Counted from the first letter of the stretch, positions 1 through 19,147 are shown. The stretch: 64,000 nucleotides of DNA from Candidatus Woesebacteria bacterium GW2011_GWA1_39_21 (GCA_000993685.1 LBWP01000006.1:5356-69355); one strand, 5' to 3'. Numbers and translations are program-made. The notes: generated from the sequence alone by a model not told the origin.

Positions 1-1605
1 TTTGAAAAATATGACTTGTGGTTTGAAAGTTTAACCCCTCCTTTTTCATTTTCATTGCTTCCGATTTTGACGAAAAAACCGGTTGTGGCAATCGTGCACA
101 TGCTTTCAGGAAAAGATATGAGAAGAAAGTATCATCTACCCTTCGATGTGGTTCAAAATTTTGGTTTGAAGCTTTACAGGCATTTTATAGTTTTATCAAA
201 GAAATCAAGAGCTGACATATTGAAGGTTAATAAAACTGCCGATATTCGAGTTATTCCAAACGGTGTTGATATCCCCAAGAAAGTAGATATGAAAAAAGAA
301 AACACAATCATTTTTATCGGGAGAATTGAAATTAATCAAAAAGGGCTTGACCTTTTACTGCATGCGTGGAAAAAGGCAGAATTAAAAATAGATGCAAAAC
401 TGGTAATTGCGGGTTCAGGACAAAATGGCGAAGTTGAAAAACTTAAAAAGTTGATCAATGATTTGAAGCTAAATAAAAGTGTTAAATATGTTGGGAGGGT
501 AGAAAATAGAAGTAAGGACGCTCTCTTTAGAAAATCACTTTTTGTCGTTTCTCCCTCAAGATTTGAAACATTTGGGGTAACCGCATTAGAGGCGATGTCC
601 TATTCGCTTCCGTTTTTGTGTTTTGATATTGATGGGTACAAATGGATCCCAAAATCAAATTGTTTGAAGGTTAAGAAGTTTGACATTAAAAGTTTTTCTG
701 ACAGCATCATTAGACTTATAAGTAATGTAAATTACAGGAAAAGCCTTTCTAGTAAATCTAAAAAATTTGTTAAACAATATAAATGGTCAAACATTGTTCA
801 AAGATATCAAGATTATATCAACGGACTATTTAATAAGAATATTTATGACTCAAATAAAATTATCGATACAATTATTAAGAACAAGCGAAGATGTGTTTTT
901 GTCTCTCCACATTTTGATGATGCCGCTTTATCCGCTGGAGGATTTTTGACGAAGATCTCCGAAAATAAAAAGGTTGTTGTGATTAATGTTTTTACAAAGG
1001 GTAATTCTGGACCATACACACTTAGTGCAAGTAAATTTTTGCAACTTTCTGATGTGTACGATGCAAACTATTTGTATGAAAAGAGAGCGATTGAGGATCA
1101 GAAAGCTTTGAAGAAGAAGAATATTCAAATTATTAATCTAGGATTTGTTGACGCAACGTTCAGGACAATTAACACGAATATTTTTCGAAAAACAGTTGGT
1201 AAGATTATTCCTGAGATGAATTATGTTTACCCGATTTATCGATTAAATGTTTTACATGGAAAAATATCTATCAACGATAAGGTGCTGTTGGAAAATCTAG
1301 CAGTTCGGCTGTCCAAAATCATCAAAAATGATGACATTGTCTTTGCACCACTTGGGATTGGAGGACATGTTGACCACAGGATTGTTAACCAGATTGTAAG
1401 AAAACTCAAAAATACGAAAGTTTTTTGGCGAGATTTTCCCTACAGTTCTTATGTCTCAGAAGAAATTATTGGCAACAAAAGAGTTCTGATATATAACGGG
1501 GAGCAAAAAAGTAGAGAATTAATGATAAGAAAATATGTTACCCAAGTAAATAGTATGTTTCCAAGTGGTGAGATAGAGCTCACACCTGAAGTTTATTGTT
1601 TTTAA
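1..1605 (+). CDS. 5'-truncated (runs off window start) bifunctional protein: GT4-type glycosyltransferase domain fused to a C-terminal PIG-L/LmbE-family N-acetylglucosaminyl deacetylase
   Basis: Frame is open from nt 1, with no start codon in the window. N-terminal half has GT1/GT4 C-domain motifs (FIGRIEINQKGLDLLL, EXFG: FETFGVTALEAM). C-terminal half has PIG-L/LmbE motifs (VSPHFDDAALSAGG and GGHVDHRIV). Confidence 0.7.
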   Translation, partial: FEKYDLWFESLTPPFSFSLLPILTKKPVVAIVHMLSGKDMRRKYHLPFDVVQNFGLKLYRHFIVLSKKSRADILKVNKTADIRVIPNGVDIPKKVDMKKENTIIFIGRIEINQKGLDLLLHAWKKAELKIDAKLVIAGSGQNGEVEKLKKLINDLKLNKSVKYVGRVENRSKDALFRKSLFVVSPSRFETFGVTALEAMSYSLPFLCFDIDGYKWIPKSNCLKVKKFDIKSFSDSIIRLISNVNYRKSLSSKSKKFVKQYKWSNIVQRYQDYINGLFNKNIYDSNKIIDTIIKNKRRCVFVSPHFDDAALSAGGFLTKISENKKVVVINVFTKGNSGPYTLSASKFLQLSDVYDANYLYEKRAIEDQKALKKKNIQIINLGFVDATFRTINTNIFRKTVGKIIPEMNYVYPIYRLNVLHGKISINDKVLLENLAVRLSKIIKNDDIVFAPLGIGGHVDHRIVNQIVRKLKNTKVFWRDFPYSSYVSEEIIGNKRVLIYNGEQKSRELMIRKYVTQVNSMFPSGEIELTPEVYCF

Positions 1606-2198: not shown

Positions 2199-3662
2199 AT
2201 GTCAAATCGATCCAACATCATAAAAATCAATGTATTGTTAATGGTGACATTTATAATTACGACTGTAGTATTGGGCATAATTGTAAAGGGCGTGGCGGGA
2301 AACCTGTCTGCAAACGATGTTTACAATCTTCAAGCGAGGACACAGCCTTTTGAGTTATCTCCGGAACGGGGTCGTTTTGCGATAGTACAATCGCTTTTCG
2401 AATATCGGCGATTAGATTTTCCAAAAGAAGTTGCTAGGTATGTGATTCCTGACCTGGCCTACCGGGACGGTAAATTTGTTACACTGTTTCCACCAGGTGT
2501 GTCTTTTATTTCCTCACCACTTTACTATCTTGGAAAACAGTTTAATTACTCACAGTATTTTTCTTTTCTTACCGTTTCGATATTTGCCATCATCAACGTA
2601 TTTTTAATTTTCAAAATTGTGGCTTTGTTAACCTCTAACAAATATGCTGGGATTCTGGCAGGTTTAATATTTTTATTTTCAACAACAGCTCTTCCTTATG
2701 CTATAACACTGTACCAGCACCATTTTACAACGTTTTTTATTTTGTTGTCTTTGTTTTTATTTCTGAAAAAAAAATCGATAACCAGTTTGCTACTTAGCTA
2801 TTTTAAATTTATAGATATAAAGGTTGGAAAGAAGATAATTGTAAAGCTCAGTTACTCAATCTTTGTTGCTTTTTTGGCGTTTGTTGTGGGGATAATTCCA
2901 AATCTTGCCTTTAGTAAATATGTTTATGGAAATATGTTTCAGCTTGCAGGTACAGTTCGGGGTGTCAAAAATGTGCAGGTTCTTGAACCCGACATTGAAG
3001 CGGCACGCTCAAACAGCGAGCAGGCTGTAGATTCGAATAAATCCTTATCAAATTTTTTTCAAATGTCCAATGTTGCTAACGGATTTCAGGTCTTGATTGC
3101 TTCATCGGAGAGGGGATTTGTTTTTTATGCACCGGTTATGTTGTTGTCAATTTTCGTAATTTTTGTTTTTTCTAAATCAAGTGATGATAACAAAAAGACG
3201 ATTCGATTAGTATTTGTTGTTCAGTTATTAATTTTAATTTTGTACTTAATGTGGGGTGACCCATGGGGCGGTTGGGCATTTGGACCAAGGTACCTTATTC
3301 CCCTTTTTTCCTGTAACTCGATTCTATTAGGGGTTGTTTTGAATAAATATGGGAAAAACCTATTAATGTTGGCTCTATTTTCTGTTTTATTCATTTACGG
3401 CCTAGCTGTTAATACCGCCGGGGCATTGACAACAAACGCCCTGGCCCCTTCAAAGGAGGTCGAATCAGCATCACTTCCAAAAGTTCAGTACATGTTTAAT
3501 TTTCAGATGATAAGTGACAACCATTCATCTTCCTTTGTTTACAACAACCTATTAAATCAATATTTTGATTTGAAGACATTCTTTTTTCTTATCATTTCCG
3601 TTGTTAGCGTTTTGTATCTAATTAACTTGATTTTATTGTATAGGAGTGAATATGAAAATTAG
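2199..3662 (+). CDS. GT-C fold membrane glycosyltransferase, ArnT/PMT-like (GT39/GT83-type)
   Basis: Multi-pass membrane protein. First-loop pattern ERGRFAIV...YRDGKFVTLFPPGVSF..YYLG resembles the ArnT/PMT DE-x-R-Y-A ... KPPLxYW arrangement. Confidence 0.55.
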   Translation: MSNRSNIIKINVLLMVTFIITTVVLGIIVKGVAGNLSANDVYNLQARTQPFELSPERGRFAIVQSLFEYRRLDFPKEVARYVIPDLAYRDGKFVTLFPPGVSFISSPLYYLGKQFNYSQYFSFLTVSIFAIINVFLIFKIVALLTSNKYAGILAGLIFLFSTTALPYAITLYQHHFTTFFILLSLFLFLKKKSITSLLLSYFKFIDIKVGKKIIVKLSYSIFVAFLAFVVGIIPNLAFSKYVYGNMFQLAGTVRGVKNVQVLEPDIEAARSNSEQAVDSNKSLSNFFQMSNVANGFQVLIASSERGFVFYAPVMLLSIFVIFVFSKSSDDNKKTIRLVFVVQLLILILYLMWGDPWGGWAFGPRYLIPLFSCNSILLGVVLNKYGKNLLMLALFSVLFIYGLAVNTAGALTTNALAPSKEVESASLPKVQYMFNFQMISDNHSSSFVYNNLLNQYFDLKTFFFLIISVVSVLYLINLILLYRSEYEN

Positions 3663-6357
3663 TTTTAAAAAGGAAGGTCTAAACATCGAACTGCCAAACT
3701 TTGCAAAAGTGGCTCCACAACTTGAAAAAAGTGCCGGAATTATTCTAATTGGCACACTAATTCTTTTGAGTCTTTTGGCTTTCGCCTATTTCTATTCAAA
3801 GGATTTAATTCTTTCATACAACGATTCTCGGGCTCACATGGATATGGCGCGACTAATTATCGACAACTTAAAACCTGGGTTTGCTCAACTTGGTGGAGTT
3901 TGGCTTCCGCTGCCACACCTTCTTATGCTTCCACTAGTTTGGAATGACTGGATGTGGCAAACAGGCCTTGCCGGGTCGGTATTTTCGATGTTTTTTTATG
4001 TCGTGTCCGGTATATATGTATCCAAATTATTGGCATTTGTTGTTAAGGATAAATTTTCTGTTGTTATTTGTACACTACTTTTTGCTTTAAATGTGAATTT
4101 GCTATATATGCAGTCGACACCGATGACGGAACTTACTTTACTTTCATTCTCTATTGCCGCTACTTATTATTTGTTGCGTTGGGTTCAAAGTGACAAACTC
4201 ACAGATTTCCTACTTCTTAGTCTGGCAGTTCTTTTGGCGACGTTAGTCAGATATGACGGATGGATGTTGTTTTTATTGACTGCTTTGAGTATCTTTATCA
4301 TTCGTCTACGAAAGGTATTAATTTCTTTAAAGGAAAAGCCTTTTTTTGTAAAAGTTAGAATTGCGTTAACTAACAGTAGTTTATGGGGTATTTTGTTAAT
4401 GTATGGACTTTTGGCTGGTTTGGGAATTGCTCTATGGGTTTTATGGAACTGGGCGATTTTTAAAGATCCTCTGTTTTTTTTAACTGGACCGTATTCTGCG
4501 AAAGCTCAACAAGCGGTGATTAGTGGGGCGGGAAAACTTTTTACAGAAGGAAACATTTTACTTTCCGTCTCCGCTTACTGGTGGGCAATGGCCGATAATG
4601 TAGGTTTGTTTGTTTTTTTATCCGCACTGATAGGTTTTTTAATTGCAATTAAAGAGGATAAATTTAACGATACATTTGTTGTACTACTGACACTTCTTGC
4701 ACCGATTTTCTTCCACATATCATCTCTTTATGGTGGTAATTCAGTGCTTGTACTTCCTGAATTGAAAATTAATGTTACAGAAGGACTTAAAGGAACATTA
4801 TTTAATGCGCGATACGGTTTAATGATTTTGCCAGCTGTTTCAGTATTTACCGCGTATTTAATCAAAAAGGGAAATTTTATTAGGTGGCTGGTTTTAGTTC
4901 TTATTCTCTTTAGCTATCTGATGATGGCAAAGGAGGCGTATGTGATTGACTTGATCGATGGGCAAATGGGGTCAAGTTCGCTAAGGGTTGGTGATGTAAG
5001 CACCTGGCTAAAAGAAAATGCACCCGGCAAAGGTCTGATACTTACCGCACTTTCATACAATAACGCACTTGCATTTAGTACGGGTTTTGATTTAAAAAGA
5101 TTTATTCACGAGGGCACAGGAAAATACTGGCAATCTGCTTTGGAAAATCCACAGGAGTATTCGCAGTGGATTGTTATGGCCAATGGTGACGTCGGAGATC
5201 CTGTTTACAACGCTTTAATAAAAAACAACCATTCAAACTTTCTAAAATATTACGATCTTTCGCAAAAATTTGATTTTTTGAATGTATATAAAAGAAAAGA
5301 AGTCCCGAAAAACTTTGTCTACATCCATGACGAACAGTTTAAGGTTGACGATGCAAACCTTAGATTTATTGGGGTAAATTCTTACGATTTGATTTACCGT
5401 TCAACAGGTGAGATAGCCTCCACACTTTCATCTGCAAAAGCCAGTGGATTTGAAGTTGTTCGTCTCTGGGTTTTTGGCGAAGGTGACTTTAATGTGCTGC
5501 AACCAAAGCCGGGAGAATACAATGAAGCCTTGCTTGATAATCTGGATTATATCTTAGCAACGGCGGGAAAACTTAACATGAATGTTATCTTAACACTATC
5601 AAATTACTGGGAAGCTTACGGTGGTGTAAGGCAATATTTGAAATGGGTTGATTTACCTAATGACAAACCATCGGATTTGGATAGATTTTTTACCGACAGT
5701 CGTGTCAGAACGATTTACAAAAATTATGTCAATGCAATTGTACTTAGGAAAAATACTTTGACGGAGATTAACTATAGAGACGACCCAACCATTATGACGT
5801 GGGAACTTATGAATGAACCAAGAAGTTCATCGTTATCTACAGCGAACGTTGTCAACGATTGGTTTTCCGAAATGACAAGCCATATCAAATCTTTGGATAA
5901 ATATCACATCGTAACGACCGGGATAGAAGGACATTTTGACAACTTGTCCATAAATCCATACACAACGGGTCCGACAATAAATGATGTAAGTAATAATGTA
6001 AGTATTGATGTGTTGTCAGGGCATTTGTATTTGGACTATTTTGATCCATCAGTTAGTGCAAATAACTTCTCGATTGTTAACCTTTGGACAGCATTTGCAA
6101 AAAATGCAGGTATGCCGTTCTTTATTGAGGAAGTTGGTTTTTCAAAAAAACCTGATGATAATGGTGGAATTGATCGATATACTCTTTATGAAAACTTATT
6201 GGAGTCAGCAAGAAAAAACAATCTTCAGGGTTTAATTCTTTGGAATTGGGCTTTAAAGACTGATGACAGTTTTGGAATTTCGCCGCTTGATCCTGGTGAT
6301 GCGGAACTGATTCAGCTTTTCAAATCCTATTCTGAAAGGCTGAAAAACGATGTATAA
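3646..6357 (+). CDS. fusion protein: N-terminal ArnT/PMT-like GT-C membrane domain plus C-terminal glycoside hydrolase family 5 (mannanase/cellulase-like) domain
   Basis: N-terminal ~480 aa are polytopic with DSRAHMDMARLI...GGVWLPLPHLL (GT-C loop-1-like). C-terminal ~400 aa carry the GH5 acid/base motif WELMNEPR, a candidate nucleophile in FFIEEVGF, and the SGHLY motif. Confidence 0.7.
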   Translation: MNMKISFKKEGLNIELPNFAKVAPQLEKSAGIILIGTLILLSLLAFAYFYSKDLILSYNDSRAHMDMARLIIDNLKPGFAQLGGVWLPLPHLLMLPLVWNDWMWQTGLAGSVFSMFFYVVSGIYVSKLLAFVVKDKFSVVICTLLFALNVNLLYMQSTPMTELTLLSFSIAATYYLLRWVQSDKLTDFLLLSLAVLLATLVRYDGWMLFLLTALSIFIIRLRKVLISLKEKPFFVKVRIALTNSSLWGILLMYGLLAGLGIALWVLWNWAIFKDPLFFLTGPYSAKAQQAVISGAGKLFTEGNILLSVSAYWWAMADNVGLFVFLSALIGFLIAIKEDKFNDTFVVLLTLLAPIFFHISSLYGGNSVLVLPELKINVTEGLKGTLFNARYGLMILPAVSVFTAYLIKKGNFIRWLVLVLILFSYLMMAKEAYVIDLIDGQMGSSSLRVGDVSTWLKENAPGKGLILTALSYNNALAFSTGFDLKRFIHEGTGKYWQSALENPQEYSQWIVMANGDVGDPVYNALIKNNHSNFLKYYDLSQKFDFLNVYKRKEVPKNFVYIHDEQFKVDDANLRFIGVNSYDLIYRSTGEIASTLSSAKASGFEVVRLWVFGEGDFNVLQPKPGEYNEALLDNLDYILATAGKLNMNVILTLSNYWEAYGGVRQYLKWVDLPNDKPSDLDRFFTDSRVRTIYKNYVNAIVLRKNTLTEINYRDDPTIMTWELMNEPRSSSLSTANVVNDWFSEMTSHIKSLDKYHIVTTGIEGHFDNLSINPYTTGPTINDVSNNVSIDVLSGHLYLDYFDPSVSANNFSIVNLWTAFAKNAGMPFFIEEVGFSKKPDDNGGIDRYTLYENLLESARKNNLQGLILWNWALKTDDSFGISPLDPGDAELIQLFKSYSERLKNDV

Positions 6358-6368
6358 TATTTATCCAA

Positions 6369-7205
6369 ATGAAAGTTTCTCTCGTTGTCACGGTTCTTAA
6401 TGAGGAACCTTCTATTGCAGCACTTCTCGAATCGCTTATTTCCCAAACAAGGCAACCGGATGAGATCGTCATTGTCGACGGAGGGTCAAACGACAAAACA
6501 GTTAATATTATTAAAAGTTATCAGAAAGTCATTAAAGGCCTGAAACTTTTGGAGTTCAAAACGACACGATCTGAGGCGAGAAATATCGGAATCCGCTCTT
6601 CAAGCGGTGATGTAATTGTCACGACCGACGCCGGATGTGTTGCGGAAAAACACTGGATTAAAAAAATCACCCAGCCTTTTACTGATTCGAAAATTGCAGC
6701 CAGATCTTTGGCTTTCCGCAAAATTTTGTGGGAAAAAGTTGGTGGGTTTCCAGAGGGGCTAAAAGACACAGCTGAAGATACGATGTTTAATTACAATATC
6801 ATAAAGGCAGGTGCAAAAATTGCCCGTGTAAAAGATGCCATTGTTTATTGGCAACTCCCTCTAACTTTGATCGAAGGCTTTAAAAAAATATTTTTGTATG
6901 CAAAGGGCGATGCACGCTCGGGAATTTGGTGGCATCCGACGAAAAAATTTTCGACGCATAACATCAAAATTGCCTTTATTTACCTGCGTTACATTTTCGC
7001 CCTCTACTTTATTTTATTTATTCCCCTTTTCCCCGTTTTGAAACTGCCTTTCGTTTTGGGAGTGGTCTTTTACATGTTCTGGGCGTTTAAAAAAGTTTAC
7101 ACGCGGACAAATGACTGTTTAGCAGGTCTGTCTGGAGTTGTTGTCCAGTTTGCTTCCGATATCGCCGTAATGTGTGGCTTTTTGTCAGGATTGATTACTA
7201 TATAG
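6369..7205 (+). CDS. family 2 glycosyltransferase with C-terminal transmembrane segment
   Basis: N-terminus VSLVVTVLNEE...DEIVIVDGGSNDKT is a typical GT2 start; C-terminus is hydrophobic. Confidence 0.65.
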   Translation: MKVSLVVTVLNEEPSIAALLESLISQTRQPDEIVIVDGGSNDKTVNIIKSYQKVIKGLKLLEFKTTRSEARNIGIRSSSGDVIVTTDAGCVAEKHWIKKITQPFTDSKIAARSLAFRKILWEKVGGFPEGLKDTAEDTMFNYNIIKAGAKIARVKDAIVYWQLPLTLIEGFKKIFLYAKGDARSGIWWHPTKKFSTHNIKIAFIYLRYIFALYFILFIPLFPVLKLPFVLGVVFYMFWAFKKVYTRTNDCLAGLSGVVVQFASDIAVMCGFLSGLITI

Positions 7206-7920
7206 ATCTTTTGAATCTTTGGTAAACTCCAAACAAGTACCAGTAAATATATTTAGGTAGCCATTTCATTAGCTTAAATTTCGATTTACCGTATTTTCTG
7301 TCGACCCAAAATGTTGGGACCTCTGTGACTTTAAATCCGGCAAAATATCCTTTGATCAAAAGCTCCTCCGCAAATTCAAAACCACCCCTCGATTCGATTT
7401 TAATACTTTTCAAAATTTCTTTTTTAAACATTTTATAAGAATAGGTCAGATCCGATGTAGGAATTCCAAGAAGATATGGTGTTGTTATTCCTGATAGCCG
7501 TGAAAGGACAGATTTAAGTGTGACTTTGGAAACAATTCGTCCGCCCTTGGAATATCTGGTTGGGCAAACGATATCGTAACCTTGTTCAATTTTTTCATAC
7601 ATCGAGTTTAAAGTTTTAGGGTCGTCTGTTCGGTCGGCAGCCATCATTACTAAAATTTCTCCGCGAGCGGTGTTGAAACCTTTCAGGGTTGCGTTGACTA
7701 CACCTTTTCCAAAATCGTTACGAACCAAACGGATGTTTCTGTGCCTTGAAACTAGTTTGCGTGCAACCGGTAAGGTGTTGTCCTTTTCATCATCATAGAC
7801 AATAATTAATTCAAATTTTGGCCGAACGACCTTACGGATTTTATCAACTGTCCAAGCAAGATTTTTCCTTTCATTTTTGACTGGTAGGATAATACTAATT
7901 TCTGGTTTTTGTTGATACAT
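7198..7920 (-). CDS. GT2 polyprenol-phosphate sugar synthase (DPM1/GtrB-like dolichyl/undecaprenyl-phosphate mannosyl- or glucosyl-transferase)
   Basis: ISIILPVKNERKNL...ELIIVYDDEKDNT...AADRTDDP matches the DPM1/GtrB GT2 pattern. Soluble, 240 aa. Confidence 0.75.
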   Translation of the reverse strand: MYQQKPEISIILPVKNERKNLAWTVDKIRKVVRPKFELIIVYDDEKDNTLPVARKLVSRHRNIRLVRNDFGKGVVNATLKGFNTARGEILVMMAADRTDDPKTLNSMYEKIEQGYDIVCPTRYSKGGRIVSKVTLKSVLSRLSGITTPYLLGIPTSDLTYSYKMFKKEILKSIKIESRGGFEFAEELLIKGYFAGFKVTEVPTFWVDRKYGKSKFKLMKWLPKYIYWYLFGVYQRFKRSI

Positions 7921-8700: not shown

Positions 8701-9666
8701 ATGAAAAGGAGTGAGAAAATATTAATAACTGGTGCAGGTGGTTTTATTGGTCACCACCTGGCACGGTATTTGAAAATGAGGGGCTATTTTGTGCGTGGTG
8801 TAGATATCGAGTATCCTCAATTTTCAACACTAGACGATTTTAGCCAGTTTAAGCTTTTAGACATTCGAAGTTTCAGGAATTGCATGGAGGCTATGCAAGA
8901 TATAGATAAAGTTTATGCATTGGCCGCACTTAACGGCAGTATCGAATATACGACAAAAGAAAAGGCGGTTTTGGTACGAGACAACACGACAATAAATCTG
9001 AATACTGCCGAAGCGGCTGTTCGTTCTCACGTAAAGCGTTTATTTTATTCATCATCCGCTTGCGTGTATCCTGTTTGGAAACAGATGGAAGGAAACATTC
9101 AACCGCTGCGTGAAGAAGATTCATATCCAGCTCTGCCAGATAGCGAATACGGATGGGAGAAATTATATTCGGAGCGGATGTATAAATCTTACGAAACTGA
9201 TTTTGGTTTAGACGTTCGCATTGCAAGATTTTTCAATATTTACGGCCCTGAGTCTTTAATTGATACCTTAAAATCGAAGGCGCCAATGGCATTAACAAAA
9301 AAAGTCATTGAGGCAGGTAATGGTGGAACAGTCCAGATTTGGGGTGACGGACAGCAAGTCAGATCGTTTTGCCACGTTGATGATTGCTGCGAGGGGATTT
9401 ATTTGTTGATGAAATCTAATATTAATGAACCGGTAAATCTTGGTACATCTGATCACGTCAGCATTAACGAACTTGTCGATATGATAACAAAGATTGAGGG
9501 AATTAAAATCAAGAAGGAATACCAAATGGATAAAATTCAAGGCGTTCGGGCGAGACTTTGTGATTTTACGAAGGCGGAAAAACTTTTACGTTGGACACGC
9601 AAGGTAACTTTAGAAAAAGGTTTGAAAGAGATTAATATCTTTGTTCACAAACAGCTCGGGAAATAA
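8701..9666 (+). CDS. NAD-dependent sugar-nucleotide epimerase/dehydratase (extended SDR)
   Basis: Rossmann motif ILITGAGGFIGHHL; catalytic YxxxK (YGWEK); 321 aa. Confidence 0.8.
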   Translation: MKRSEKILITGAGGFIGHHLARYLKMRGYFVRGVDIEYPQFSTLDDFSQFKLLDIRSFRNCMEAMQDIDKVYALAALNGSIEYTTKEKAVLVRDNTTINLNTAEAAVRSHVKRLFYSSSACVYPVWKQMEGNIQPLREEDSYPALPDSEYGWEKLYSERMYKSYETDFGLDVRIARFFNIYGPESLIDTLKSKAPMALTKKVIEAGNGGTVQIWGDGQQVRSFCHVDDCCEGIYLLMKSNINEPVNLGTSDHVSINELVDMITKIEGIKIKKEYQMDKIQGVRARLCDFTKAEKLLRWTRKVTLEKGLKEINIFVHKQLGK

Positions 9667-9671
9667 GGTGA

Positions 9672-11222
9672 TCAATTATATAACCTTACTTCGTAATCTT
9701 CCCCCAACGATTGGCAACTTCCAATTTTTGTGAAGTCGTTGCTTTGGAGATAGCGCTCTATCTGACCACAGGATTTCATCTCTCGTGTTTTTTTGTTTTC
9801 GGGTTCCTGTGGTTTTTTTGCAAGAACCGCGAGCATGGGTTTTTGCGAAACTTGAAGCTCACCTGCAATAATTTTGCCGTATTTACAGCTATTGTGGATT
9901 CCCGGTTCTTCTGTAATAAATGAGCTGGCAGGTTTTAAATCGCTTCTCACTAAATATAACGAAGCGTTATTCCAAAGAAATTTATCGTACGAAAGACGCC
10001 CAACAAAGATTGACTTTCCTGGGACATTGTTCGTTAACCGGCGGCAATCCGATGTTTGCAGATCAATTTGATAACGCGCAAAATTATATCGAGGTACAAG
10101 TATGTATGATACTTTAACATACCAAGCCGCTAACGGTAAAAATGTCAAAAGTATAATGAAAAGCTTCGTTTGACTGAATAAATTTAGTGATTTGTTGAGA
10201 AGCACCCAGATGATACTGACAGCAAACCATAAAGGAACTGCGTGGAGCCAGTCGGATCGACCGATAGCGTAGAGCACAAACACGAGAGGATAGGATAAAA
10301 GGATTACACTACTAAGAAGTTTAGAAAGATGCTGGTTACCAAGCGAAGAAATTGCTATTTTTTTTGAACTTCTGATCAGAAGATATACGTAGATTACGAT
10401 GCAAAGGTAAATAAGTATTTCCGGACGTAACGGGTGTTTTGGAATGGGAAGCGGTAAATCTCTGTAGCTGGTGGTTAAAAATACTGGTATAACAAAGATA
10501 AAATCAATCGCGCTTTTCAAAACATTAAGCTTTTGTAAATAGAATAGCAATAAAGATAAAGATAAAAGATACGCTAAAAGTGAAAGGCGGATGTACCGGA
10601 AAAGTGTAACTAAAACAAAAGCATTTTTTTTCGTTGTGAGTCGGAAAGAGATGAAGATCAAAAAGTAAAGTCCGTGAAGAAATAACATCCAATCCCAGCG
10701 AAACCAAACGCTGGCAAATGTAACGGCGAAAGCAAAGAAGAGTGGTTTGATACTTTGCCGTTTAATGTAGTTTAAAAGCAAAAGAACATTTAATAATAAA
10801 AGCAGTAAAGAGAATGCTTCACTGCTTTCAAAAATTCTGATAACGGCTGATATAAACAAGATAACGATAGCAAGTTGGCAGTACAATCCAACTGTTTTTC
10901 GATTGCGAAAACCTAACATTAGCAGAATTGAAGTTGTCAGCAAAATGTAAAAAAGTGATTGAATAATGTTGTTTTGAATAATTGAAAGATATGGAAAGAT
11001 TTTTCCAAAGACAAGAAAAATACCTGGAGGATAGACAACTGAAAAGTCTCGATACGGAGTTAGTCCTCGTACGATATATATCTTAGAAAGAATTCGCAGA
11101 CTGCCATCAAAAATATCAACTTCGTAGCTGCCGATAATAAAAAGAAAGATTGTATATAGATAGAAGAAAAACGAAAGTAAGAAGAAATATTTTGCAATCT
11201 TGTTAATTGTTTTTTTATCCAT
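9672..11222 (-). CDS. polytopic integral membrane protein, possible additional GT-C type glycosyltransferase
   Basis: 516 aa with many TM helices. N-terminal loop YRDFSVVYPPGIFLVFG weakly resembles the GT-C loop motif. No firm assignment. Confidence 0.35.
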   Translation of the reverse strand: MDKKTINKIAKYFFLLSFFFYLYTIFLFIIGSYEVDIFDGSLRILSKIYIVRGLTPYRDFSVVYPPGIFLVFGKIFPYLSIIQNNIIQSLFYILLTTSILLMLGFRNRKTVGLYCQLAIVILFISAVIRIFESSEAFSLLLLLLNVLLLLNYIKRQSIKPLFFAFAVTFASVWFRWDWMLFLHGLYFLIFISFRLTTKKNAFVLVTLFRYIRLSLLAYLLSLSLLLFYLQKLNVLKSAIDFIFVIPVFLTTSYRDLPLPIPKHPLRPEILIYLCIVIYVYLLIRSSKKIAISSLGNQHLSKLLSSVILLSYPLVFVLYAIGRSDWLHAVPLWFAVSIIWVLLNKSLNLFSQTKLFIILLTFLPLAAWYVKVSYILVPRYNFARYQIDLQTSDCRRLTNNVPGKSIFVGRLSYDKFLWNNASLYLVRSDLKPASSFITEEPGIHNSCKYGKIIAGELQVSQKPMLAVLAKKPQEPENKKTREMKSCGQIERYLQSNDFTKIGSCQSLGEDYEVRLYN

Positions 11223-11280
11223 ACAAACCTACTTTTGGTAATGATATCATGGCCGCATAGAGTGAGTTACAATATAGCAA

Positions 11281-12495
11281 ATGGGATATTACCGAAAAAC
11301 ACTTCACGGCTTAAAGTATCAGACACTAATGCGCGCTTCAATTAGAATTATTGGTTTTATCAAAGTCGCGTTAATAGCACGGATTTTAGGGCCCGTCGAG
11401 TTTGGAATCTTTGGGATAGCAACTCTCTTGATGGGACTATTGGATACTTTCACTGACACGGGGATTAATGTTTTTCTAATTCAGGAGAAGAACAGTTTGA
11501 AAAAATTTCTTGATTCTGCGTTTTTTGTCTCGCTAACGCGGGCAGTTCTAATTGCACTAGTAATTGTTCTTCTTAACCCTTTTGTTAAGCAGTTTTTTAA
11601 CATCAGAAGTACAACACAAACTCTGCTTTTAGTTGCATTGGTCTCACTTTTGCGTGGTCTGATCAATCCTGCGATGGTGCAGTTTGAAAAGAAATTTCAG
11701 TTCGATAAACAGATGACTATCAGAGTGTTTCTATATCTACTTGACGCGATTTTTTCTATTTACTTTTGCTATAAATTCAGGGTTTCTGAAGCGATATTTA
11801 TGGGAATGATCGTTGGTGTCTTTATTGAGATTTTAATTTCCTGGTTTTTTATAAAGCCACGCGCGAAGCTCAAGTTGAATATTTCTCAATTGAAGTATGT
11901 TTTTACGAGAGGAAAGTGGATCACGCTAACGGGTATTTTTAACTATCTTTTCCATAATCTTGATGATATTTTTGTCGGCAGGATTTTAGGAGTTTCAAGT
12001 TTGGGTATATATCAACTTTCGTATAAACTTTCAACGGTTCCGATATACGAGACGGGGGAGATTTTCGGTAGAGTAACGCTTCCCGTGTATTCAAAAATAT
12101 CGCACAGTAAAGAGAGGTTAAAGAAAGCGTTTACAAAAGTAACGTTCGTAATATCACTTTTAGTTATTCCCCTGGGAATACTTTTAATCATCTTCGCCAA
12201 AAATATTGTCATGATTTTCGGCAACCAATGGCTTGAGGCAGTTCCAGTTGTCAGGTGGTTGGCGTTTTTTGGAATATTGAGAGCAATAACGGGTTCCGTT
12301 ACACCGCTTTTTTACGGCATCAAAAAACAGGAATATGCCATGAATTTCATTTTAGTTGGATTAATTGTACTGATTATTACGATATATCCTTTGGTTAAAA
12401 TCTACGGTATTATCGGGGCATGTATTTCTACAATAATTGCAACAATATCCACTATTCCGATAATCATTTTTTATTTAAAAAAGGAGTTTAAATGA
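11281..12495 (+). CDS. Wzx-like polysaccharide flippase (MOP/polysaccharide biosynthesis protein family)
   Basis: N-terminus RIIGFIKVALIARILGPVEFGIFGIATLL is typical of Polysacc_synt flippases; about 12 TM helices. Confidence 0.6.
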   Translation: MGYYRKTLHGLKYQTLMRASIRIIGFIKVALIARILGPVEFGIFGIATLLMGLLDTFTDTGINVFLIQEKNSLKKFLDSAFFVSLTRAVLIALVIVLLNPFVKQFFNIRSTTQTLLLVALVSLLRGLINPAMVQFEKKFQFDKQMTIRVFLYLLDAIFSIYFCYKFRVSEAIFMGMIVGVFIEILISWFFIKPRAKLKLNISQLKYVFTRGKWITLTGIFNYLFHNLDDIFVGRILGVSSLGIYQLSYKLSTVPIYETGEIFGRVTLPVYSKISHSKERLKKAFTKVTFVISLLVIPLGILLIIFAKNIVMIFGNQWLEAVPVVRWLAFFGILRAITGSVTPLFYGIKKQEYAMNFILVGLIVLIITIYPLVKIYGIIGACISTIIATISTIPIIIFYLKKEFK

Positions 12496-13292
12496 AAGAC
12501 GAGTTAAAAGAAGAAACACTAAAAAAACTGCTTCAGAAATTTTGGTATATCCCCTCTGACGTTGTACTTCGAACATATGAGGCGCTTCTTTGGAATAAGA
12601 TTAAATTTATCCACCCAAACCTCGATGTTGGCTGCGGAGATGGTGAGGTGGACGACTTTCTATTTAAGGGCAAGTATTTTGACTGTGCAATTGACGTTAT
12701 TGAGAGCGATATCCCCAAAGCTCGAAAATTATCAATTTATAAAAAGGTTATTAAGGCCGACGCAAGAGCTCTGCCTTTTAAAAACAATTCTTTTTCACAA
12801 GTGATTTCAAATAGCAGCTTTGAACATATTCAAAATGACGCTAAGGCGATTTCGGAAATTTCTCGTGTATTGAAAAAAGGAGGATTTTTTTGTTTTACAA
12901 CTACAAACAATTTTTTAAAAAAGGAGTTAAAGAAAATTACAGCATCCGACGAAAGGTTTATCAGCTACAACGAAAGAGTGAAACACTTTCATTACAGAAG
13001 TTTACAATCGTGGAAAAAAATTCTTTTTAAAAATGGTCTAAAGATTCGAAAGCATTACTTGTACATGGACGAAGACACAGTGAAAGTTTGGTTTTTATTG
13101 TTTCGCATGTTCACTTTTAAAATAAAGAAAAGAGAGCTATGGTCGTATTTAAGTAGTTCCAAAATCACAAAATTCATTCCTTCGTCGATAGTGGCTAAAG
13201 TGGAGCTTTTTGTACTAAAAAAAGTAGTCAGATTTGAATTTAGCCAAACGCAAGGACATTGGCTTTATATTGAAGCTGTTAAAACTATATGA
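12492..13292 (+). CDS. class I SAM-dependent methyltransferase (Methyltransf_11-like)
   Basis: LDVGCGDGE motif I; ARALPFKNNSFSQVISNSSFEHI motif II/III region. Confidence 0.65.
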   Translation: MKDELKEETLKKLLQKFWYIPSDVVLRTYEALLWNKIKFIHPNLDVGCGDGEVDDFLFKGKYFDCAIDVIESDIPKARKLSIYKKVIKADARALPFKNNSFSQVISNSSFEHIQNDAKAISEISRVLKKGGFFCFTTTNNFLKKELKKITASDERFISYNERVKHFHYRSLQSWKKILFKNGLKIRKHYLYMDEDTVKVWFLLFRMFTFKIKKRELWSYLSSSKITKFIPSSIVAKVELFVLKKVVRFEFSQTQGHWLYIEAVKTI

Positions 13293-14407: not shown

Positions 14408-14789
14408 AGTTAGCTCAAGAAAAAAAATATTTTGGTTACTTTTTGGAATTTGGGTGTTTGTATTTTTAGTTGTTGACGCCTTTCGGGTTTTTAAAAAGAC
14501 TGTTTCAAAAATATACGAGGGAAATATACAAAAAGTCCAAAGTATGAGTGTGGATGAATTGTCAGCTTTGGCAAAAAGCAGAATTAAAAAGGGAAACTCT
14601 GTAGTTTTTCTTTCCGACGACGGCCTGGCGTACATGTATTTCAATCTGCTTTCCTATCCTCTGGTTGCGAAGTGGAGCACTGATTACACAGCCGTTGAAT
14701 TAAGGGATTGGGATTATCTTGTCGTTTATGACACGGTTAATATGTTTCAACTAAGAAGCGGACTATACTCGAAAAATGATTTTAATTAA
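14400..14789 (+). CDS. hypothetical membrane-anchored protein
   Basis: N-terminal TM helix; tightly packed in the operon; no motif. Confidence 0.3.
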   Translation: MSKVSSRKKIFWLLFGIWVFVFLVVDAFRVFKKTVSKIYEGNIQKVQSMSVDELSALAKSRIKKGNSVVFLSDDGLAYMYFNLLSYPLVAKWSTDYTAVELRDWDYLVVYDTVNMFQLRSGLYSKNDFN

Positions 14790-16122
14790 ATTTGTCATTG
14801 CCATAATTTTTACCTTCTTTGCCGGTGCTTGCGTATTCAGGTTATTTATGAAGGACAAAAGTGTTTCCGGACTTTTGTTTATCGCCACTTCTTTTTTCAT
14901 CGGCATGTCGGCAATTTCATTTCAGATGCAGCTTTATTCGCTTGTTGGGATACAATTTAGCGCTTTAAAATTGGGTCTACCATGGCTTATATTTCTACCA
15001 CTTTTCTTGAAAGAGAAGTATCTTTTTAAAGTTAAAATCAACTTGCGCAAAGTAGATAGTCCGCTTCTTTTGTTTTTTCTTTTGATAACTGTCTTTCAAC
15101 TCTCGCTGATTTTTTTGCGATTTTTTTTGCACAGAAATGCAATCGGATGGGACGGAATAAGCATTTGGTATTACAAAGCAAACGCTTTTTTTGTTGATAA
15201 AACAATTGATTTTAGCATTTTTACGAACCCGCTATTGGGCCAAGAAGGTTTAACCGATACATATATCCGTTCAAGTTACCCGCTTTTTCTGCCGTTATAT
15301 TTGGCGTTTATCTTTTTGACGATCGGAAAGTTCAGCATTTTTTTCGGAAACATAATTTGGATATTATGCTATCTCTTACTTTTAGTTGTCCTTTACAAAT
15401 TTTTGCTGCGCCGTTTTAATTTTTCTTTTGCTGTTCTTGGAATTTTTTTGTTAGTTTCGCTTCCCGCCAATTTTGATCATTTGGCGGGAAAATACGCCGG
15501 CTACGCCGATTTAATTCTAATGTGTTTTGCAACGACGGGTGTTATTTTTTTTCTGGAAGGGATTTTTCGTAAAAAACTGTATTATCTTTCAATCAGCCTA
15601 CTTTTGGCTTCTGCCGCTGCAAATATTAAGGAGGACGGAATGGTATTTTTGGCAGCGATAGCGATAATGTTTACCCTAACCTCTTTTGCAAAAAGAAAGT
15701 TTACAAACTTAAAATATTTAGCAGTTCCGCTTTTGATTGTTTCCCCCTGGTATGTTATTCGGGACATCTTGCGTTTCCCTTCTCTTCTCGACGCATCGAG
15801 CGGGGTGCATTTTGACAGGTTGGCGACAATTGTTGTTGTAATATTTCAACAATTTTTTGATGTTGGAAATTTTCTTTTTTTGTTCCCCCTGTTTCTGCTT
15901 ACGCTTGTCTTTTCCTACAGGGTTATTTTTAAACAATATTATGTCTATCTACTTGTTGTGATTGGCATGGTAATTGCTTGCTACGTTATAATCTTTATGT
16001 TAACACCGCTTGATCCGGTAAGGCACATCAACTCGCTTGCCGATCGGATTTTGTATACCGTTTCTCCTTTGATGATCATCTTTATCTTGCAAACCTTTTG
16101 GAATAGCTATATAGAAAAATAA
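14776..16122 (+). CDS. polytopic integral membrane protein of unknown function (glycan polymerase/transferase candidate)
   Basis: 448 aa, >10 predicted TM helices, embedded in the glycosylation operon. Confidence 0.4.
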   Translation: MILIKFVIAIIFTFFAGACVFRLFMKDKSVSGLLFIATSFFIGMSAISFQMQLYSLVGIQFSALKLGLPWLIFLPLFLKEKYLFKVKINLRKVDSPLLLFFLLITVFQLSLIFLRFFLHRNAIGWDGISIWYYKANAFFVDKTIDFSIFTNPLLGQEGLTDTYIRSSYPLFLPLYLAFIFLTIGKFSIFFGNIIWILCYLLLLVVLYKFLLRRFNFSFAVLGIFLLVSLPANFDHLAGKYAGYADLILMCFATTGVIFFLEGIFRKKLYYLSISLLLASAAANIKEDGMVFLAAIAIMFTLTSFAKRKFTNLKYLAVPLLIVSPWYVIRDILRFPSLLDASSGVHFDRLATIVVVIFQQFFDVGNFLFLFPLFLLTLVFSYRVIFKQYYVYLLVVIGMVIACYVIIFMLTPLDPVRHINSLADRILYTVSPLMIIFILQTFWNSYIEK

Positions 16123-16126
16123 CGAT

Positions 16127-18370
16127 ATGAAAAAACCTGATCTCTCGATAATATATGTTAACTACAATAGTCTGACCGATCTTTCACAATCAATTAGGTC
16201 ATTAATAAAATACGGATTTAAAAAGAATTTGGAAATTATCGTCGTTGATAATGGTCACTCTAAAGAAATCAAAAAAATTCTTTCGCAATTCCACACTAAG
16301 GTAAAGTTAATTAGAAGCAAAATTAATGGCGGCTATGGGGCCGGAAATAATCTAGGTGCGCTCATCTCAGTTGGAAAATACTTGCTATTTCTTAATCCCG
16401 ACACCGAAATGAAAAAGGGGAGTATTGACGTGCTTTATAACTTTTTAGAAAAAAACGACGACGTTGCAATTGTTGCACCAAACCTTGTTGATACAAGGGG
16501 AATTGTCTTTAAACAACTTGGCTCACGAAAGTTGACACCACTAAGAGGAATATTTTCATTATCGATTATCAACAGACTCTTTTCCGGTAACCCAATTGCG
16601 AAAAATTACAACCTCCTGGACAAAGATTTTAACAAAGTCCGTGAAGCAGACGTTGTCCCCGGTTCCGCGTTTATGATAAGAGCCTCGGTCTTTAAAAAAG
16701 TCGGCGGCTTTGATAAGCGGTTTTTTATGTACTTTGAGGAGTCGGATCTTTGTCTTCGCGTCAAACAGTTGGGGTACAAAATTGTTATCATACCGACTTC
16801 CGAAATTGTCCACAAGTGGAGTGACAGACAAAATAAAAAATTAAAAAAATATTTTTACAAAAGCCGTTTTTATTATTTTAAGAAACACTTCGGAGTGGTT
16901 GCCGCTTCGTTTGTCGAATTCATCTGCCGCTTAACCAAATATGATTTGGTATTCATCTTAATTTTCGCACTGGGCGCGTATCTGAGGTTTTATATGTCTA
17001 ACAAACTTTTTTATCTTGATTCGGAGGTTGCCGATAATTTGCTAGACATAAAAAACGCCTATTTAAGTAATAGCATCCCATTAATCGGTCCGCCAACTTC
17101 TCATCCTTGGTTGAACTTTGGTCCACTTTTCTATTGGATATATGGCCCTATTTTGATTTTTTTTAAGTTTAATCCGGCAACCCACATGTACTTTGGGCTG
17201 CTTGTTAGCTGTCTTGCAATTTTCTTGAACTACTTTGTTGTAAAACGCTTTTGGGGTTCTAAAATCGCAGTTTTGTCATCGCTGATTATTTCACTATCAC
17301 CGTTTTTATTGGGGTATGCATACCTTGGTAGATTTTATACATACACAGTAACTTTTTCATATCTAACACTATTTCTGCTTTTAAAGTTTTTAGATACGAA
17401 AAAAGGTCTTTTCTGGCTTTTTTTCAGTGTTGGATTGCTTTTGAACTTTCATTATTCGACACTTGTTTTGGCTCCAGCGATTCTTTTGCTTATTACTCTG
17501 CGTAAGATTAAGCTCTCGTTTAAGGATTTATTTATCTTACTCATTGCTGTCTTGTTGCCGCTCTCCCCACTTTTTATATATGATGCTCAAAATCATTTTG
17601 TCATGTTACAAAAATTGTTTTTATGGTTTCCATATCGGGTTTTGAGTGTTTTTTGGGTAATTAATGCGGGAAATGTTCCACAAGACGCGTTAGTTTCCGG
17701 ATACCAAATGTTTTTCGGATTTGTCGGAAATCTTTTGTCTTTTGAAGACGTTAAAACACTCCACATTTTGGCAGCATTGACTGTCTTTACGCTGTTACTT
17801 TTTACACTGATTAAATTCACGAAACTGGGAAAATATTCGCAAAACCTTATAATTATCTCCGGAAGTTCTTTGTTCTTACTGACTTTACACGGCGAGACAC
17901 CTAATCATTACTTTCTCTTTATCTCTCCATTTATTTTAATTTTGATAACGGTTGCACTAGTTAGACTTTTTCCGCGGAGAATATCGCTCTTTCTTCTACT
18001 TTTGATTTGTTCAGTGTTATTTTTTAACATCGTACTTTATCTCAAATTGAGGCAGAACAAAGTGATAACGACCTATTTTCAACAAAAACAAGTAGCAACG
18101 TTTTTGGTTAATGACAGTAACTCAAAAGCAATCTGGCTAAGAAGAATCGGTGAAAACGACCAGTTTGATGGAGATTTCGCGCAAAATTATGATTATCTTT
18201 TGTGGATGTTTGGAAACGAACCGGTAAGGTTGGGTAATCTGACCAATAGTCAAAAAAATCCACAAGTTGAATATATAATAGTGGAAGATAAGTCGTTTGA
18301 AGACAAAGCCTTTGTATCGATGCAAAAGTATTCAGTGTCAGGTGTAACAATTTTAAAAAAGAATTTATGA
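16127..18370 (+). CDS. fusion protein: N-terminal GT2 glycosyltransferase domain plus C-terminal ArnT/PMT-like GT-C membrane domain
   Basis: N-terminus LSIIYVNYNS...IIVVDNGHSKE...NPDTE (GT2 DXD). C-terminal polytopic domain has LDSEVADNLLDIKNAY...GPPTSHPWLNFGPLFYW, the ArnT/PMT loop-1 pattern. Confidence 0.65.
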   Translation: MKKPDLSIIYVNYNSLTDLSQSIRSLIKYGFKKNLEIIVVDNGHSKEIKKILSQFHTKVKLIRSKINGGYGAGNNLGALISVGKYLLFLNPDTEMKKGSIDVLYNFLEKNDDVAIVAPNLVDTRGIVFKQLGSRKLTPLRGIFSLSIINRLFSGNPIAKNYNLLDKDFNKVREADVVPGSAFMIRASVFKKVGGFDKRFFMYFEESDLCLRVKQLGYKIVIIPTSEIVHKWSDRQNKKLKKYFYKSRFYYFKKHFGVVAASFVEFICRLTKYDLVFILIFALGAYLRFYMSNKLFYLDSEVADNLLDIKNAYLSNSIPLIGPPTSHPWLNFGPLFYWIYGPILIFFKFNPATHMYFGLLVSCLAIFLNYFVVKRFWGSKIAVLSSLIISLSPFLLGYAYLGRFYTYTVTFSYLTLFLLLKFLDTKKGLFWLFFSVGLLLNFHYSTLVLAPAILLLITLRKIKLSFKDLFILLIAVLLPLSPLFIYDAQNHFVMLQKLFLWFPYRVLSVFWVINAGNVPQDALVSGYQMFFGFVGNLLSFEDVKTLHILAALTVFTLLLFTLIKFTKLGKYSQNLIIISGSSLFLLTLHGETPNHYFLFISPFILILITVALVRLFPRRISLFLLLLICSVLFFNIVLYLKLRQNKVITTYFQQKQVATFLVNDSNSKAIWLRRIGENDQFDGDFAQNYDYLLWMFGNEPVRLGNLTNSQKNPQVEYIIVEDKSFEDKAFVSMQKYSVSGVTILKKNL

Positions 18371-19143
18371 GCAAAATCAGTGTCGTAATTTTAACCCACA
18401 ATTCGGGGAGTGTGATTGGACCGCTCTACCAATCGCTTAAAGAGTTTGATGAGGTCCTTGCTATTGATGATAACTCCTGCGATCAGACAGAAAATATTTG
18501 TAAGCGTTTAGGTATCAGATATTTCAATCACACCCTCAACGGCGACTTTTCCGCACAAAGAAATTTCGCTCTAACAAAATGTAGCTACGACTGGGTGTTT
18601 TACATTGATAGTGACGAGACGGTTAATGAGAATTTTGTGGACGAGATTAAAAGGTTAGCCGGTAACAACAATTTTGCAGGCTATTATGTTACGCGAAAAG
18701 TTAATTTTTTAAATCATGTCATGATTGCTACGGAAATGGGAAATGACAAGTTGGTTCGCGTTGGTTTAAAAAATTCTGGTAAGTGGGTTCGGCGCGTGCA
18801 TGAAGTTTGGAAGATTAACGGAAATCTGGGTGAAATTAACACGCCGCTTATTCATAATACTGCACTTACGCTTCACAAATTTATCGAAAAGCTAAACTGT
18901 TATTTCAGGCTTCATGCACAAGAAAATCTAAACGCAGGGAAAAGTGTCAGCTTTTCTAAAATATTATTTTTTTCGCTTGGAAAATTTTTTAAAAATTATA
19001 TATTTCTTCGTGGATATCGTGATGGTACGCATGGCTTCGTCGCAAGTGTTCTCATGTCGCTTCATACATTTCTTTCCTGGTCGTACGCTTGGCTTCAAGG
19101 AAATATTCAGAAAGGTAACAGGGGTGATAAACTTTCAGTGTAG
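18367..19143 (+). CDS. family 2 glycosyltransferase
   Basis: ISVVILTHNSG...LAIDDNSCDQT...YIDSDE. Confidence 0.7.
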   Translation: MSKISVVILTHNSGSVIGPLYQSLKEFDEVLAIDDNSCDQTENICKRLGIRYFNHTLNGDFSAQRNFALTKCSYDWVFYIDSDETVNENFVDEIKRLAGNNNFAGYYVTRKVNFLNHVMIATEMGNDKLVRVGLKNSGKWVRRVHEVWKINGNLGEINTPLIHNTALTLHKFIEKLNCYFRLHAQENLNAGKSVSFSKILFFSLGKFFKNYIFLRGYRDGTHGFVASVLMSLHTFLSWSYAWLQGNIQKGNRGDKLSV

Positions 19144-19147
19144 TAGT

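Follow-up and report, generated by a model that had tools for sequence, protein, structure and literature searches.

Glycosyltransferases (GTs) of the GT-C superfamily, among them ArnT, PMT1/2/4, PglB/STT3/AglB, and ALG12/ALG9/ALG3, use sugars linked to lipid phosphates, and ArnT, PglB, and the PMTs hold a key catalytic or acceptor-activating carboxylate in the first outer loop. The PMTs (family GT39) are marked by a loop-1 DE motif and by an MIR domain on the luminal side. To our knowledge, no solved or characterized GT-C enzyme bears a glycoside hydrolase (GH) domain. Hydrolases are required in the synthesis of cellulose, where the endoglycanases BcsZ (GH8) and KORRIGAN (GH9) act with cellulose synthases, and they are fused to the transferase in the cyclic β-1,3-glucan synthase NdvB (GH17 and GT2) and the cyclic β-1,2-glucan synthase Cgs (GT84 and GH94). 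The membrane-anchored AtMAN2 and AtMAN5 of GH5 subfamily 7 (GH5_7) work with CslA glucomannan synthases, and their catalytic activity is needed for normal synthesis (PMC13181414). Here we describe a gene in a 64,000-nucleotide stretch of Candidatus Woesebacteria bacterium GW2011_GWA1_39_21 (GCA_000993685.1, LBWP01000006.1:5356-69355; "the window" denotes this whole stretch) whose 901-residue product joins an N-terminal GT-C membrane module, through an α/β domain, to a C-terminal GH5 domain of the β-mannanase type.

The protein resembles AtMAN2/5, BcsZ, and KORRIGAN in that a hydrolase of the type suited to the polymer is kept at the membrane beside the synthetic machinery, and AtMAN2/5 belong to the same GH5 subfamily, but each of these is a protein of its own, anchored by one helix, and serves GT2 and not GT-C enzymes. 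With NdvB and Cgs it shares the union in one polypeptide of a transferase that builds a polymer and a GH-type domain that acts on what is built (control of length, cyclization, or branching); however, the transferases of NdvB and Cgs are of the GT-A/GT2 type, depend on nucleotide sugars, and work on the cytoplasmic side, whereas here the transferase is of the GT-C type and both activities are predicted to lie outside. Unlike the GH5_7 mannanases of tomato (LeMAN4a, 1RH9), BlMan5_7 (8GF3), and Thermotoga (Man5, 6TN6), the GH5 domain has neither a signal peptide nor a carbohydrate-binding module and sits at the C-terminal end of a polytopic transferase. The GT-C superfamily, GH5_7-like mannanases, the pairing of synthesis with an endoglycanase, and GT-GH fusions are thus already known. 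Undescribed in the literature searched are this GT-C family and a GT-C-GH fusion with both sites predicted outside the membrane; full-text searches, which mostly covered journals open without subscription, turned up neither, in line with a preliminary description of the window, made from the sequence alone, that had recognized no characterized counterpart.

The reading frame is open without interruption on the plus strand from 3646 to 6357, or 903 codons counted from the GTG at 3646. The single frame agrees with the preliminary description, but the start is moved: it is almost certainly the ATG at 3652, because AGGAG precedes it by 6 nucleotides and the database copies have 901 residues. GTG 3646 falls within the spacer between the AGGAG and this ATG, and the sequence directly 5' of the start reads TAGGAGTGAATATG. 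The TAG stop of the upstream gene lies at 3660-3662, so that the two genes overlap by 11 nucleotides, which implies translational coupling. The product is identical or near-identical to KKR11500.1 / UniRef100_A0A0G0QM80 from the same bacterium. Record names are partial and inconsistent: the NCBI entry KKR11500.1 assigns it to the wrong fold class under the name "Glycosyl transferase family 2", and the UniRef name "mannan endo-1,4-beta-mannosidase" fits the C-terminal third only. Public annotation thus catches one half of the protein at a time, with the transferase family wrong.

An error of sequencing or assembly that merged two genes through a lost stop or a frameshift is a practically negligible explanation of this architecture. 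Several independent contigs, 12-154 kb in length, encode an identical 901-residue product, and a word-indexed protein search recovered 35 further full-length orthologs (826-907 residues, 32-57% identity) that keep the domain order. An exhaustive profile search placed the full-length proteins in some 15-20 clusters at the 50% identity level. When one genome per species was scanned with an alignment spanning the junction, the complete junction was found in 16 genomes; by tblastn, module and GH5 were contiguous in 15/15 genomes whose contig includes the module, the locus L018 ending at a contig edge. The junction-spanning segment measured 256-263 residues in 36/36 fusions, and the AlphaFold model is confident over the junction (predicted local distance difference test, pLDDT, ~93-95 at residues 540-560). 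The gene is therefore a single one, as the preliminary description had proposed, and it is conserved as a fusion.

In a neighbor-joining tree of the membrane module, one branch parted all 36 fusions, along with two short proteins (one on a contig of 2.2 kb), from 82 of the 84 stand-alone modules. Because fusions and stand-alone modules split at a single branch, the tree points to one fusion event, of ancient date, whose product has persisted. We conclude from these comparisons that selection has kept a fusion of great age: its members form essentially one clade, have diverged to 32% identity, and share a junction of fixed length and invariant catalytic glutamates.

The polytopic module was assigned to the GT-C superfamily on the grounds that its fold superposes on solved GT-C enzymes, that an acidic residue is conserved in the first extracytoplasmic loop, and that the site is predicted to face outward. 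Below the top matches, the solved GT-C structures retrieved were PIG-M, ALG3, Pmt2, STT3B, AftB, ALG9, PglB, AftA, AftD, PimE, ALG6, DPY19, and EmbA. Sequence identity to any solved member is 8-15%. The query search returned no Pfam or NCBIfam family for the module; the match to PMT_2 stayed below threshold (16.2 bits against a cut-off of 26.1, E 0.013), and the PMT hallmarks were likewise missing, with N57-D58 in place of the DE motif and no MIR domain by Pfam. The label "ArnT/PMT-like" applied earlier thus holds for the fold but fails for family membership. Relatives fared similarly at E ≤ 0.1, with matches to PMT_2 in 9/61 and to PMT in 3/61, and 27/61 gave weak NCBIfam matches to the uncharacterized Leptospira family LA_3751/LA_3752. 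The profile search collected 2,424 cluster representatives at E ≤ 1e-30 (matches to GH5 only included), and a family profile matched no chain among PDB sequences. By these searches, the module is a sizeable GT-C family without a Pfam or solved-structure representative.

Hydropathy and the helices of the model agreed on 11 membrane spans, with the Lys-rich N terminus inside and the C terminus outside. The membrane domain is shorter than first described (~430 rather than ~480 residues); it is followed by a conserved α/β domain of ~120 residues (429-550) that had been missed. The density of Lys and Arg averaged 0.278 in the predicted cytoplasmic loops and 0.054 in the outer loops, with the same direction of bias in 36/36 orthologs. 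All 38 residues that are invariant across 120 family members fall in outer loops, in the outer halves of helices, or in the soluble domain that follows, and none (0/38) in cytoplasmic loops; those on the outer face of the module include Y56-N57-D58, H62, R67, E160, Y201, and N385-R387-Y388. Because of the charge bias and the position of the conserved residues, the GT-C active site and the GH5 domain are both predicted to lie outside the cell, which for the hydrolase agrees with the side assigned to it earlier. Residues 302-317 were considered as an additional span, which would have put GH5 inside. This was rejected: the segment is continuous with the helix at 319-336 except for one Gly, the two share one hydrophobic core (311-337), and both the charge bias and the invariant residues fit 11 helices with the C terminus out.

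Asp58 opens the first juxtamembrane helix, in outer loop 1, which reads YNDSRAH. From this position we infer that it is the counterpart of the GT-C carboxylate (D55 of ArnT, D56 of PglB). The α/β domain has invariant residues of its own (D436, E487-G488 in a FIHEGTG motif, and W493), and it shows a weak likeness to the globular domain at the C terminus of AglB, an archaeal oligosaccharyltransferase.

The C-terminal part is a GH5 domain, as the preliminary description had held, with a (β/α)8 fold and a complete active site of the retaining, GH5_7 type; a short linker of constant length leads into it. It matched PF00150 at 53.9 bits (cut-off 23.5) and solved GH5 endo-β-mannanases with E from 1e-47 to 1e-19, the best matches in both sequence and structure being 1RH9, BlMan5_7, and the Thermotoga, Cellvibrio, and fungal Man5A enzymes. 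All the motifs quoted earlier were present, namely WELMNEPR, EEVGF (within FIEEVGF), and SGHLY, together with the first-loop pattern of the module. Both catalytic glutamates are invariant: R604, N721, E722, Y793, E827, and W864 are shared by all 36 full-length orthologs, and H791, which SGHLY supplies along with Y793, by at least 90%. The catalytic residues being conserved, the domain appears to have been selected as a catalyst and not as a degenerate binding module. Its precomputed Pfam label is GH5_mannosidase, and it is assigned to the GH5_7 type by its similarity to 1RH9 and BlMan5_7, not by CAZy subfamily models; 1RH9 is the representative structure of subfamily 7, whose characterized members are virtually all β-1,4-mannanases, a few of which also transglycosylate (PMC3526467). 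A rival proposal is that the domain acts mainly as a transglycosylase or ligase, which would move a β-mannan-type chain through the glycosyl-enzyme intermediate and so cross-link, branch, or attach a polymer to the wall. We hold this to be improbable: the sequence features do not separate a transglycosylase from a hydrolase, and AtMAN2, the closest functional analog, is reported to have no transglycosylation activity (PMC13181414).

A larger, though still minor, share of the probability goes to nutrient scavenging, in which the GH5 domain would be a degradative surface mannanase acting on environmental plant, algal, or fungal mannan to nourish a fermenting cell, and the polytopic half mainly an anchor or the bearer of an unrelated function. 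Microgenomates live by fermentation and are thought to draw on polysaccharides. The domain shares 30% identity with secreted mannanases and comes very near to them in structure, GH5 domains of mannanases from cellulosomes and fungi were among the matches of the profile search, and GH5_7 enzymes are overwhelmingly endo-β-1,4-mannanases of polysaccharide degradation (PMC3526467). However, 11 helices with 38 invariant outer-face residues are far more than an anchor needs, the fusion lacks a carbohydrate-binding module, and it arose once and has kept a junction of fixed length. The genes around the fusion argue in the same direction. In the loci inspected, no sugar transporter or mannose-catabolic gene adjoins it, and the neighbors are always genes of glycan synthesis.

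Carriers of the fusion are mostly Patescibacteria of the Microgenomates type (Woese-, Gottesman-, Davies-, and Roizmanbacteria). A restriction to Patescibacteria-like genomes, raised in the preliminary description, therefore applies to most copies but not strictly, given the copies in L013 (57% GC) and in a genome labeled Candidatus Dormibacteria (L024, 68% GC), and a Ktedonobacteraceae version with a GH113 domain. Cultured Patescibacteria are episymbionts with surface-exposed enzymes, and the GH5 domain is predicted to be extracellular, so an attack by the outward-facing domain on the surface polysaccharide of a host or partner cell was also considered. This we judge very unlikely. Dormibacteria and Ktedonobacteraceae, the labels of other genomes with the architecture, are not known to be episymbionts; the neighborhood contains no adhesion or secretion genes; and the GT-C fusion and the conserved operon would be left unexplained.

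Some low-GC genome bins with the fusion bear implausible labels. Among L011, L014, L016, and L019, bins named "uncultured Gammaproteobacteria" (36-37% GC) hold a typical Microgenomates pair of upstream partner gene and fusion, and "Saccharibacteria/Saccharimonadales" bins (46-48% GC) hold the fusion with no detectable partner. The assignment to Gammaproteobacteria especially seems mistaken. Separately, the locus L005 of Candidatus Gottesmanbacteria contains three paralogs of the module-GH5 fusion and one stand-alone module within 22 kb (Table 1).

Examination of the window revealed that the fusion gene lies in a glycan-assembly island that makes up its first 22 kb. The gene directly upstream, whose product is 100% identical to UT39_C0006G0005, encodes a distant paralog of the GT-C module (hhalign probability 80%, E 1.5e-5, 250 columns). 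The partner gene stands immediately before the fusion in L002-L006, L009-L012, and L014, and before a stand-alone module in L007. In the 1065-residue protein P0261, a partner (residues 10-500; 34% identity to that of the window, E 2e-67) is itself fused to a module (548-1050). Because of this conserved adjacency and the fusion in P0261, the two GT-C proteins very probably work together. P0321, P0353, P0371, P0383, and P0385 are probably the same partner-module fusion; P0261 alone was checked. No partner gene was found by tblastn at the more distant fusion loci. The gene upstream of the fusion in L022 and L024 was considered as a divergent partner and rejected (hhalign probability 0.1%), as it encodes a double GT2.

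Table 1. Coordinates of the features described, in the window and in the locus L005.
Feature	Sequence	Position	Strand	Details
GT4 + PIG-L (GlcNAc deacetylase-type) fusion	Window	16-1605	+	N terminus cut at window edge
Upstream partner	Window	2199-3662	+	487 residues; polytopic; no Pfam family
Shine-Dalgarno AGGAG	Window	3641-3645	+	In last codons of upstream gene; 6 nucleotides before ATG 3652
Fusion gene	Window	3652-6357	+	901 residues in three parts (GT-C, α/β domain, GH5) and TAA stop
GT-C-fold membrane domain	Window	3652-4935	+	Residues 1-428; 11 predicted transmembrane helices, N-in/C-out
Codon of Asp58	Window	3823-3825	+	Invariant in 120/120 family members; motif Y-N-D-x-x-x-H
α/β domain	Window	4936-5301	+	Residues 429-550; predicted extracytoplasmic; also in stand-alone ~540-residue relatives
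GH5 (β/α)8 domain	Window	5302-6354	+	Residues 551-901; subfamily-7 β-mannanase type
Codon of Glu722, acid/base	Window	5815-5817	+	N721-E722 in WELMNEPR
Codon of Glu827, nucleophile	Window	6130-6132	+	In FIEEVGF; aligns with E of GEFG in mannanase 9m20
GT2 with hydrophobic C-terminal half	Window	6369-7205	+	278 residues; starts 12 nucleotides past fusion stop
DPMS-like GT2	Window	7198-7920	-	240 residues; Pyrococcus dolichol-phosphate-mannose synthase 5mlz E 2.5e-25, then GtrB, ArnC
GDP-mannose 3,5-epimerase homolog	Window	8701-9666	+	Arabidopsis GME 2c59 E 3e-69; next family 3e-29
Polytopic protein, PMT_2-like or unclassified	Window	2199-3662	+	The upstream partner
Polytopic protein, PMT_2-like or unclassified	Window	9672-11222	-	
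Polytopic protein, PMT_2-like or unclassified	Window	14776-16122		
Polytopic protein, PMT_2-like or unclassified	Window	16127-18370		
Polytopic protein, PMT_2-like or unclassified	Window	18944-20647		
Module-GH5 fusion	L005 (MFJL01000044.1)	10022-12670	+	
Module-GH5 fusion	L005 (MFJL01000044.1)	19962-17466	-	
Module-GH5 fusion	L005 (MFJL01000044.1)	22689-20947	-	
Module-only copy	L005 (MFJL01000044.1)	17329-15884	-	

The GT2 gene that follows the fusion also does so in the independent contig L001. The next gene encodes a GT2 resembling dolichol-phosphate-mannose synthase (DPMS) and is a candidate, from sequence similarity, for the maker of the polyprenyl-phosphate-sugar donor of the GT-C enzymes in the island; a DPMS-like match also lies ~1.5 kb upstream of the fusion in L015, L017, L021, and L023. 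The donor of the module itself would, judging from the gene context, be a polyprenyl-(di)phosphate-linked sugar. This arrangement recalls the Gtr-type three-component systems of extracytoplasmic glycosylation, which consist of a polyprenyl-phosphate-sugar synthase of family GT2, a flippase, and a GT-C enzyme (PMC11127046). The likeness rests on the DPMS-like (also GtrB- and ArnC-like) GT2 ~850 bp from the GT-C gene and on its counterparts at the other loci. The window differs in that no GtrA-family flippase was matched among the open reading frames scanned, two GT-C genes stand in tandem, and a hydrolase is appended; a GT2-GtrA_DPMS_TM fusion occurs in the related locus L002. The homolog of GDP-mannose 3,5-epimerase points to an island that handles GDP-mannose, and would imply production of GDP-L-galactose or GDP-L-gulose, unusual for a bacterium.

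The island also holds a methyltransferase, a Wzx-like flippase, GT4 and GT2 genes, and a Wzy_C protein. Of the four polytopic proteins other than the partner, three have PMT_2 matches, one of these being a 747-residue GT2-PMT_2 fusion. Six polytopic GT-C-like genes in 20 kb, the fusion included, is unusually dense for a small genome. At the 5' edge of the window, the GT4-PIG-L protein probably represents the end of the very large multi-GT protein with which the same operon begins in L002 (1549 residues) and L007 (1612 residues); in L002 that protein has DPMS-like and Glyco_trans_2_3-type GT2 domains plus a GT4.

The union of a GT-C enzyme and a hydrolase recurs in other forms. In P0315 (MBA2286223.1, Ktedonobacteraceae, 1377 residues), a GT2 of the Glyco_trans_2_3 type (60-342) precedes the module (504-1028), and GH113 (1079-1353), a second β-mannanase family unrelated in sequence, takes the C-terminal position of GH5. 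P0279 has a Glyco_hydro_cc domain at its C terminus, and other relatives have CarboxypepD_reg-like domains. A second kind of fusion, of 881 residues, joins a GT-C of the PMT/PMT_2 type to GH8 (L002:13857-16502, minus strand; also L003:12007-14604, minus strand), and in L002 its gene adjoins one for a 463-residue GT2 (Glyco_transf_21/Glyco_tranf_2_3), ~1 kb from the ortholog of our fusion gene. Such PMT-like (GT39-type) proteins share with the module-GH5 fusion an N-terminal GT-C, a C-terminal clan-level endoglycanase, and a length of 850-890 residues, but the GT-C family is another (20% identity, E 0.003), as is the GH family, and the fusion is much commoner: at least 120 clusters were found, the best 120 all being full-length fusions (42-54% identity) from Woese-, Roizman-, and Pacebacteria. 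The automatic JGI name of this analog, "endo-1,4-beta-D-glucanase Y/ArnT-like glycosyltransferase", lists both halves, so the GT-C-GH architecture is visible in databases but uncharacterized.

The GT2 enzymes beside these fusions are in places of the processive type, an arrangement that would fit Bcs-like logic: L022, L024, and the triple fusion P0315 each place such a GT2 beside the hydrolase. In L022 and L024, the double GT2 gene overlaps the start of the fusion and encodes a DPMS-like domain and a domain of the Glyco_tranf_2_3/Glyco_trans_2_3/Glyco_transf_21 type. That GH5_7, GH113, and GH8 have all been joined to GT-C modules, repeatedly beside GT2 genes, is a further point against the degradation of foreign mannan as the role of the GH5 domain.

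We favor, with moderate confidence, the view that the protein is a bifunctional envelope enzyme, working on the outward side of the membrane, that combines extracytoplasmic glycan assembly with built-in endo-cleavage, its substrates being deduced from similarity and context. The DPMS-like GT2 would load a hexose onto polyprenyl phosphate. This would most likely be mannose from GDP-mannose, because of the similarity to DPMS, the GDP-mannose epimerase, and the mannanase type of the hydrolases. The lipid-linked sugar would be flipped across the membrane, and the GT-C module, together with the translationally coupled upstream paralog, would pass it to a glycan acceptor outside. The tethered GH5 domain might then endo-cut a β-1,4-mannan-type part of the same envelope polymer, for trimming, release, or quality control. 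Its role would parallel that of BcsZ or KORRIGAN in making cellulose and that of AtMAN2/5 in making plant glucomannan, the latter being a precedent for a GH5_7 enzyme at the membrane that serves synthesis and not breakdown (PMC13181414). Chain trimming or length control, which the preliminary description had also suggested, is deduced from context. This bifunctional reading is supported by the architecture with its catalytic residues, by the predicted outward topology and the long conservation of the fusion, by the biosynthetic island and the adjacency of the partner kept in relatives, and by the independent recurrence of the same GT-C plus GH logic with GH113 and, on a different PMT-like GT-C, with GH8.

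Several points weigh against this view. GT-C enzymes that use β-linked polyprenyl-phosphate-mannose normally make α-mannosides, which a β-mannanase would not cut. The two halves therefore probably act on different bonds or different polymers, and the bonds that the GH5 domain cuts were probably formed by a different pathway enzyme, e.g., a GT2. No processive GT2 synthase is visible beside the gene in the window, whose edge truncates the large protein encoded upstream. Since 82 of the 84 sampled members of the module family have no GH domain of any kind, the hydrolase is an accessory. The substrate, donor, and acceptor named for each half are candidates only, and GH5_7 enzymes are classically degradative (PMC3526467).

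A broader interpretation is that GT-C-endoglycanase fusions represent an unrecognized mode of envelope-polysaccharide assembly, in which one outward-facing polypeptide extends a glycan with sugars from polyprenyl phosphate and, by means of the retaining GH domain, both cuts the chain and re-ligates it (transglycosylation) onto the wall. It would span the Patescibacteria and Chloroflexota/Dormibacterota-like relatives, and take in GH5_7, GH113 in Ktedonobacteraceae, and GH8 on PMT-like GT-C enzymes in Microgenomates. We offer it as a speculation, slightly less probable even than the transglycosylase proposal. If true, these proteins would be self-contained extracytoplasmic polymerase-ligases, beyond a transferase with a trimming accessory.

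The envelopes of the Candidate Phyla Radiation are almost unknown biochemically, yet long genome islands are given over to glycan genes. A polypeptide that carries both a transferase and an endo-mannanase offers a concrete, expressible handle on the polymer made. It also allows a test of whether hydrolysis is coupled to synthesis on the external side of a bacterial membrane where GT-C enzymes are at work, a coupling known for cellulose (BcsZ, KORRIGAN) and recently reported for the glucomannan of plants (AtMAN2/5). Together with the partner-module fusion and the GH113 and GH8 versions, the module-GH5 fusion could in addition serve as a "Rosetta-stone" guide for annotating thousands of stand-alone relatives.

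In some relatives, sortase genes and small proteins without a family lie directly 3' of the fusion (L002:13314-13856, L004:13678-14214), and L004 has two partner-fusion pairs, one on either side of a sortase gene. Surface proteins anchored by sortase might be where the processed glycan is attached. Within the window, the mechanical open reading frame from GTG 18944 (plus strand) overlaps the preceding GT2 gene (18367-19143, plus strand) by 200 nucleotides, and translation of this PMT_2 protein probably begins further 3'. The remainder of the window is housekeeping in character (DnaE, UvrA, UvrB, GatB, and three tRNAs). At the edge of the island, flanked by the three tRNA genes, are a protein with Big_13 and Glucodextran_B domains (21895-22605, minus strand) and one with two LysM domains (24670-25311, minus strand); from their domains, both are possible surface or wall-binding proteins.

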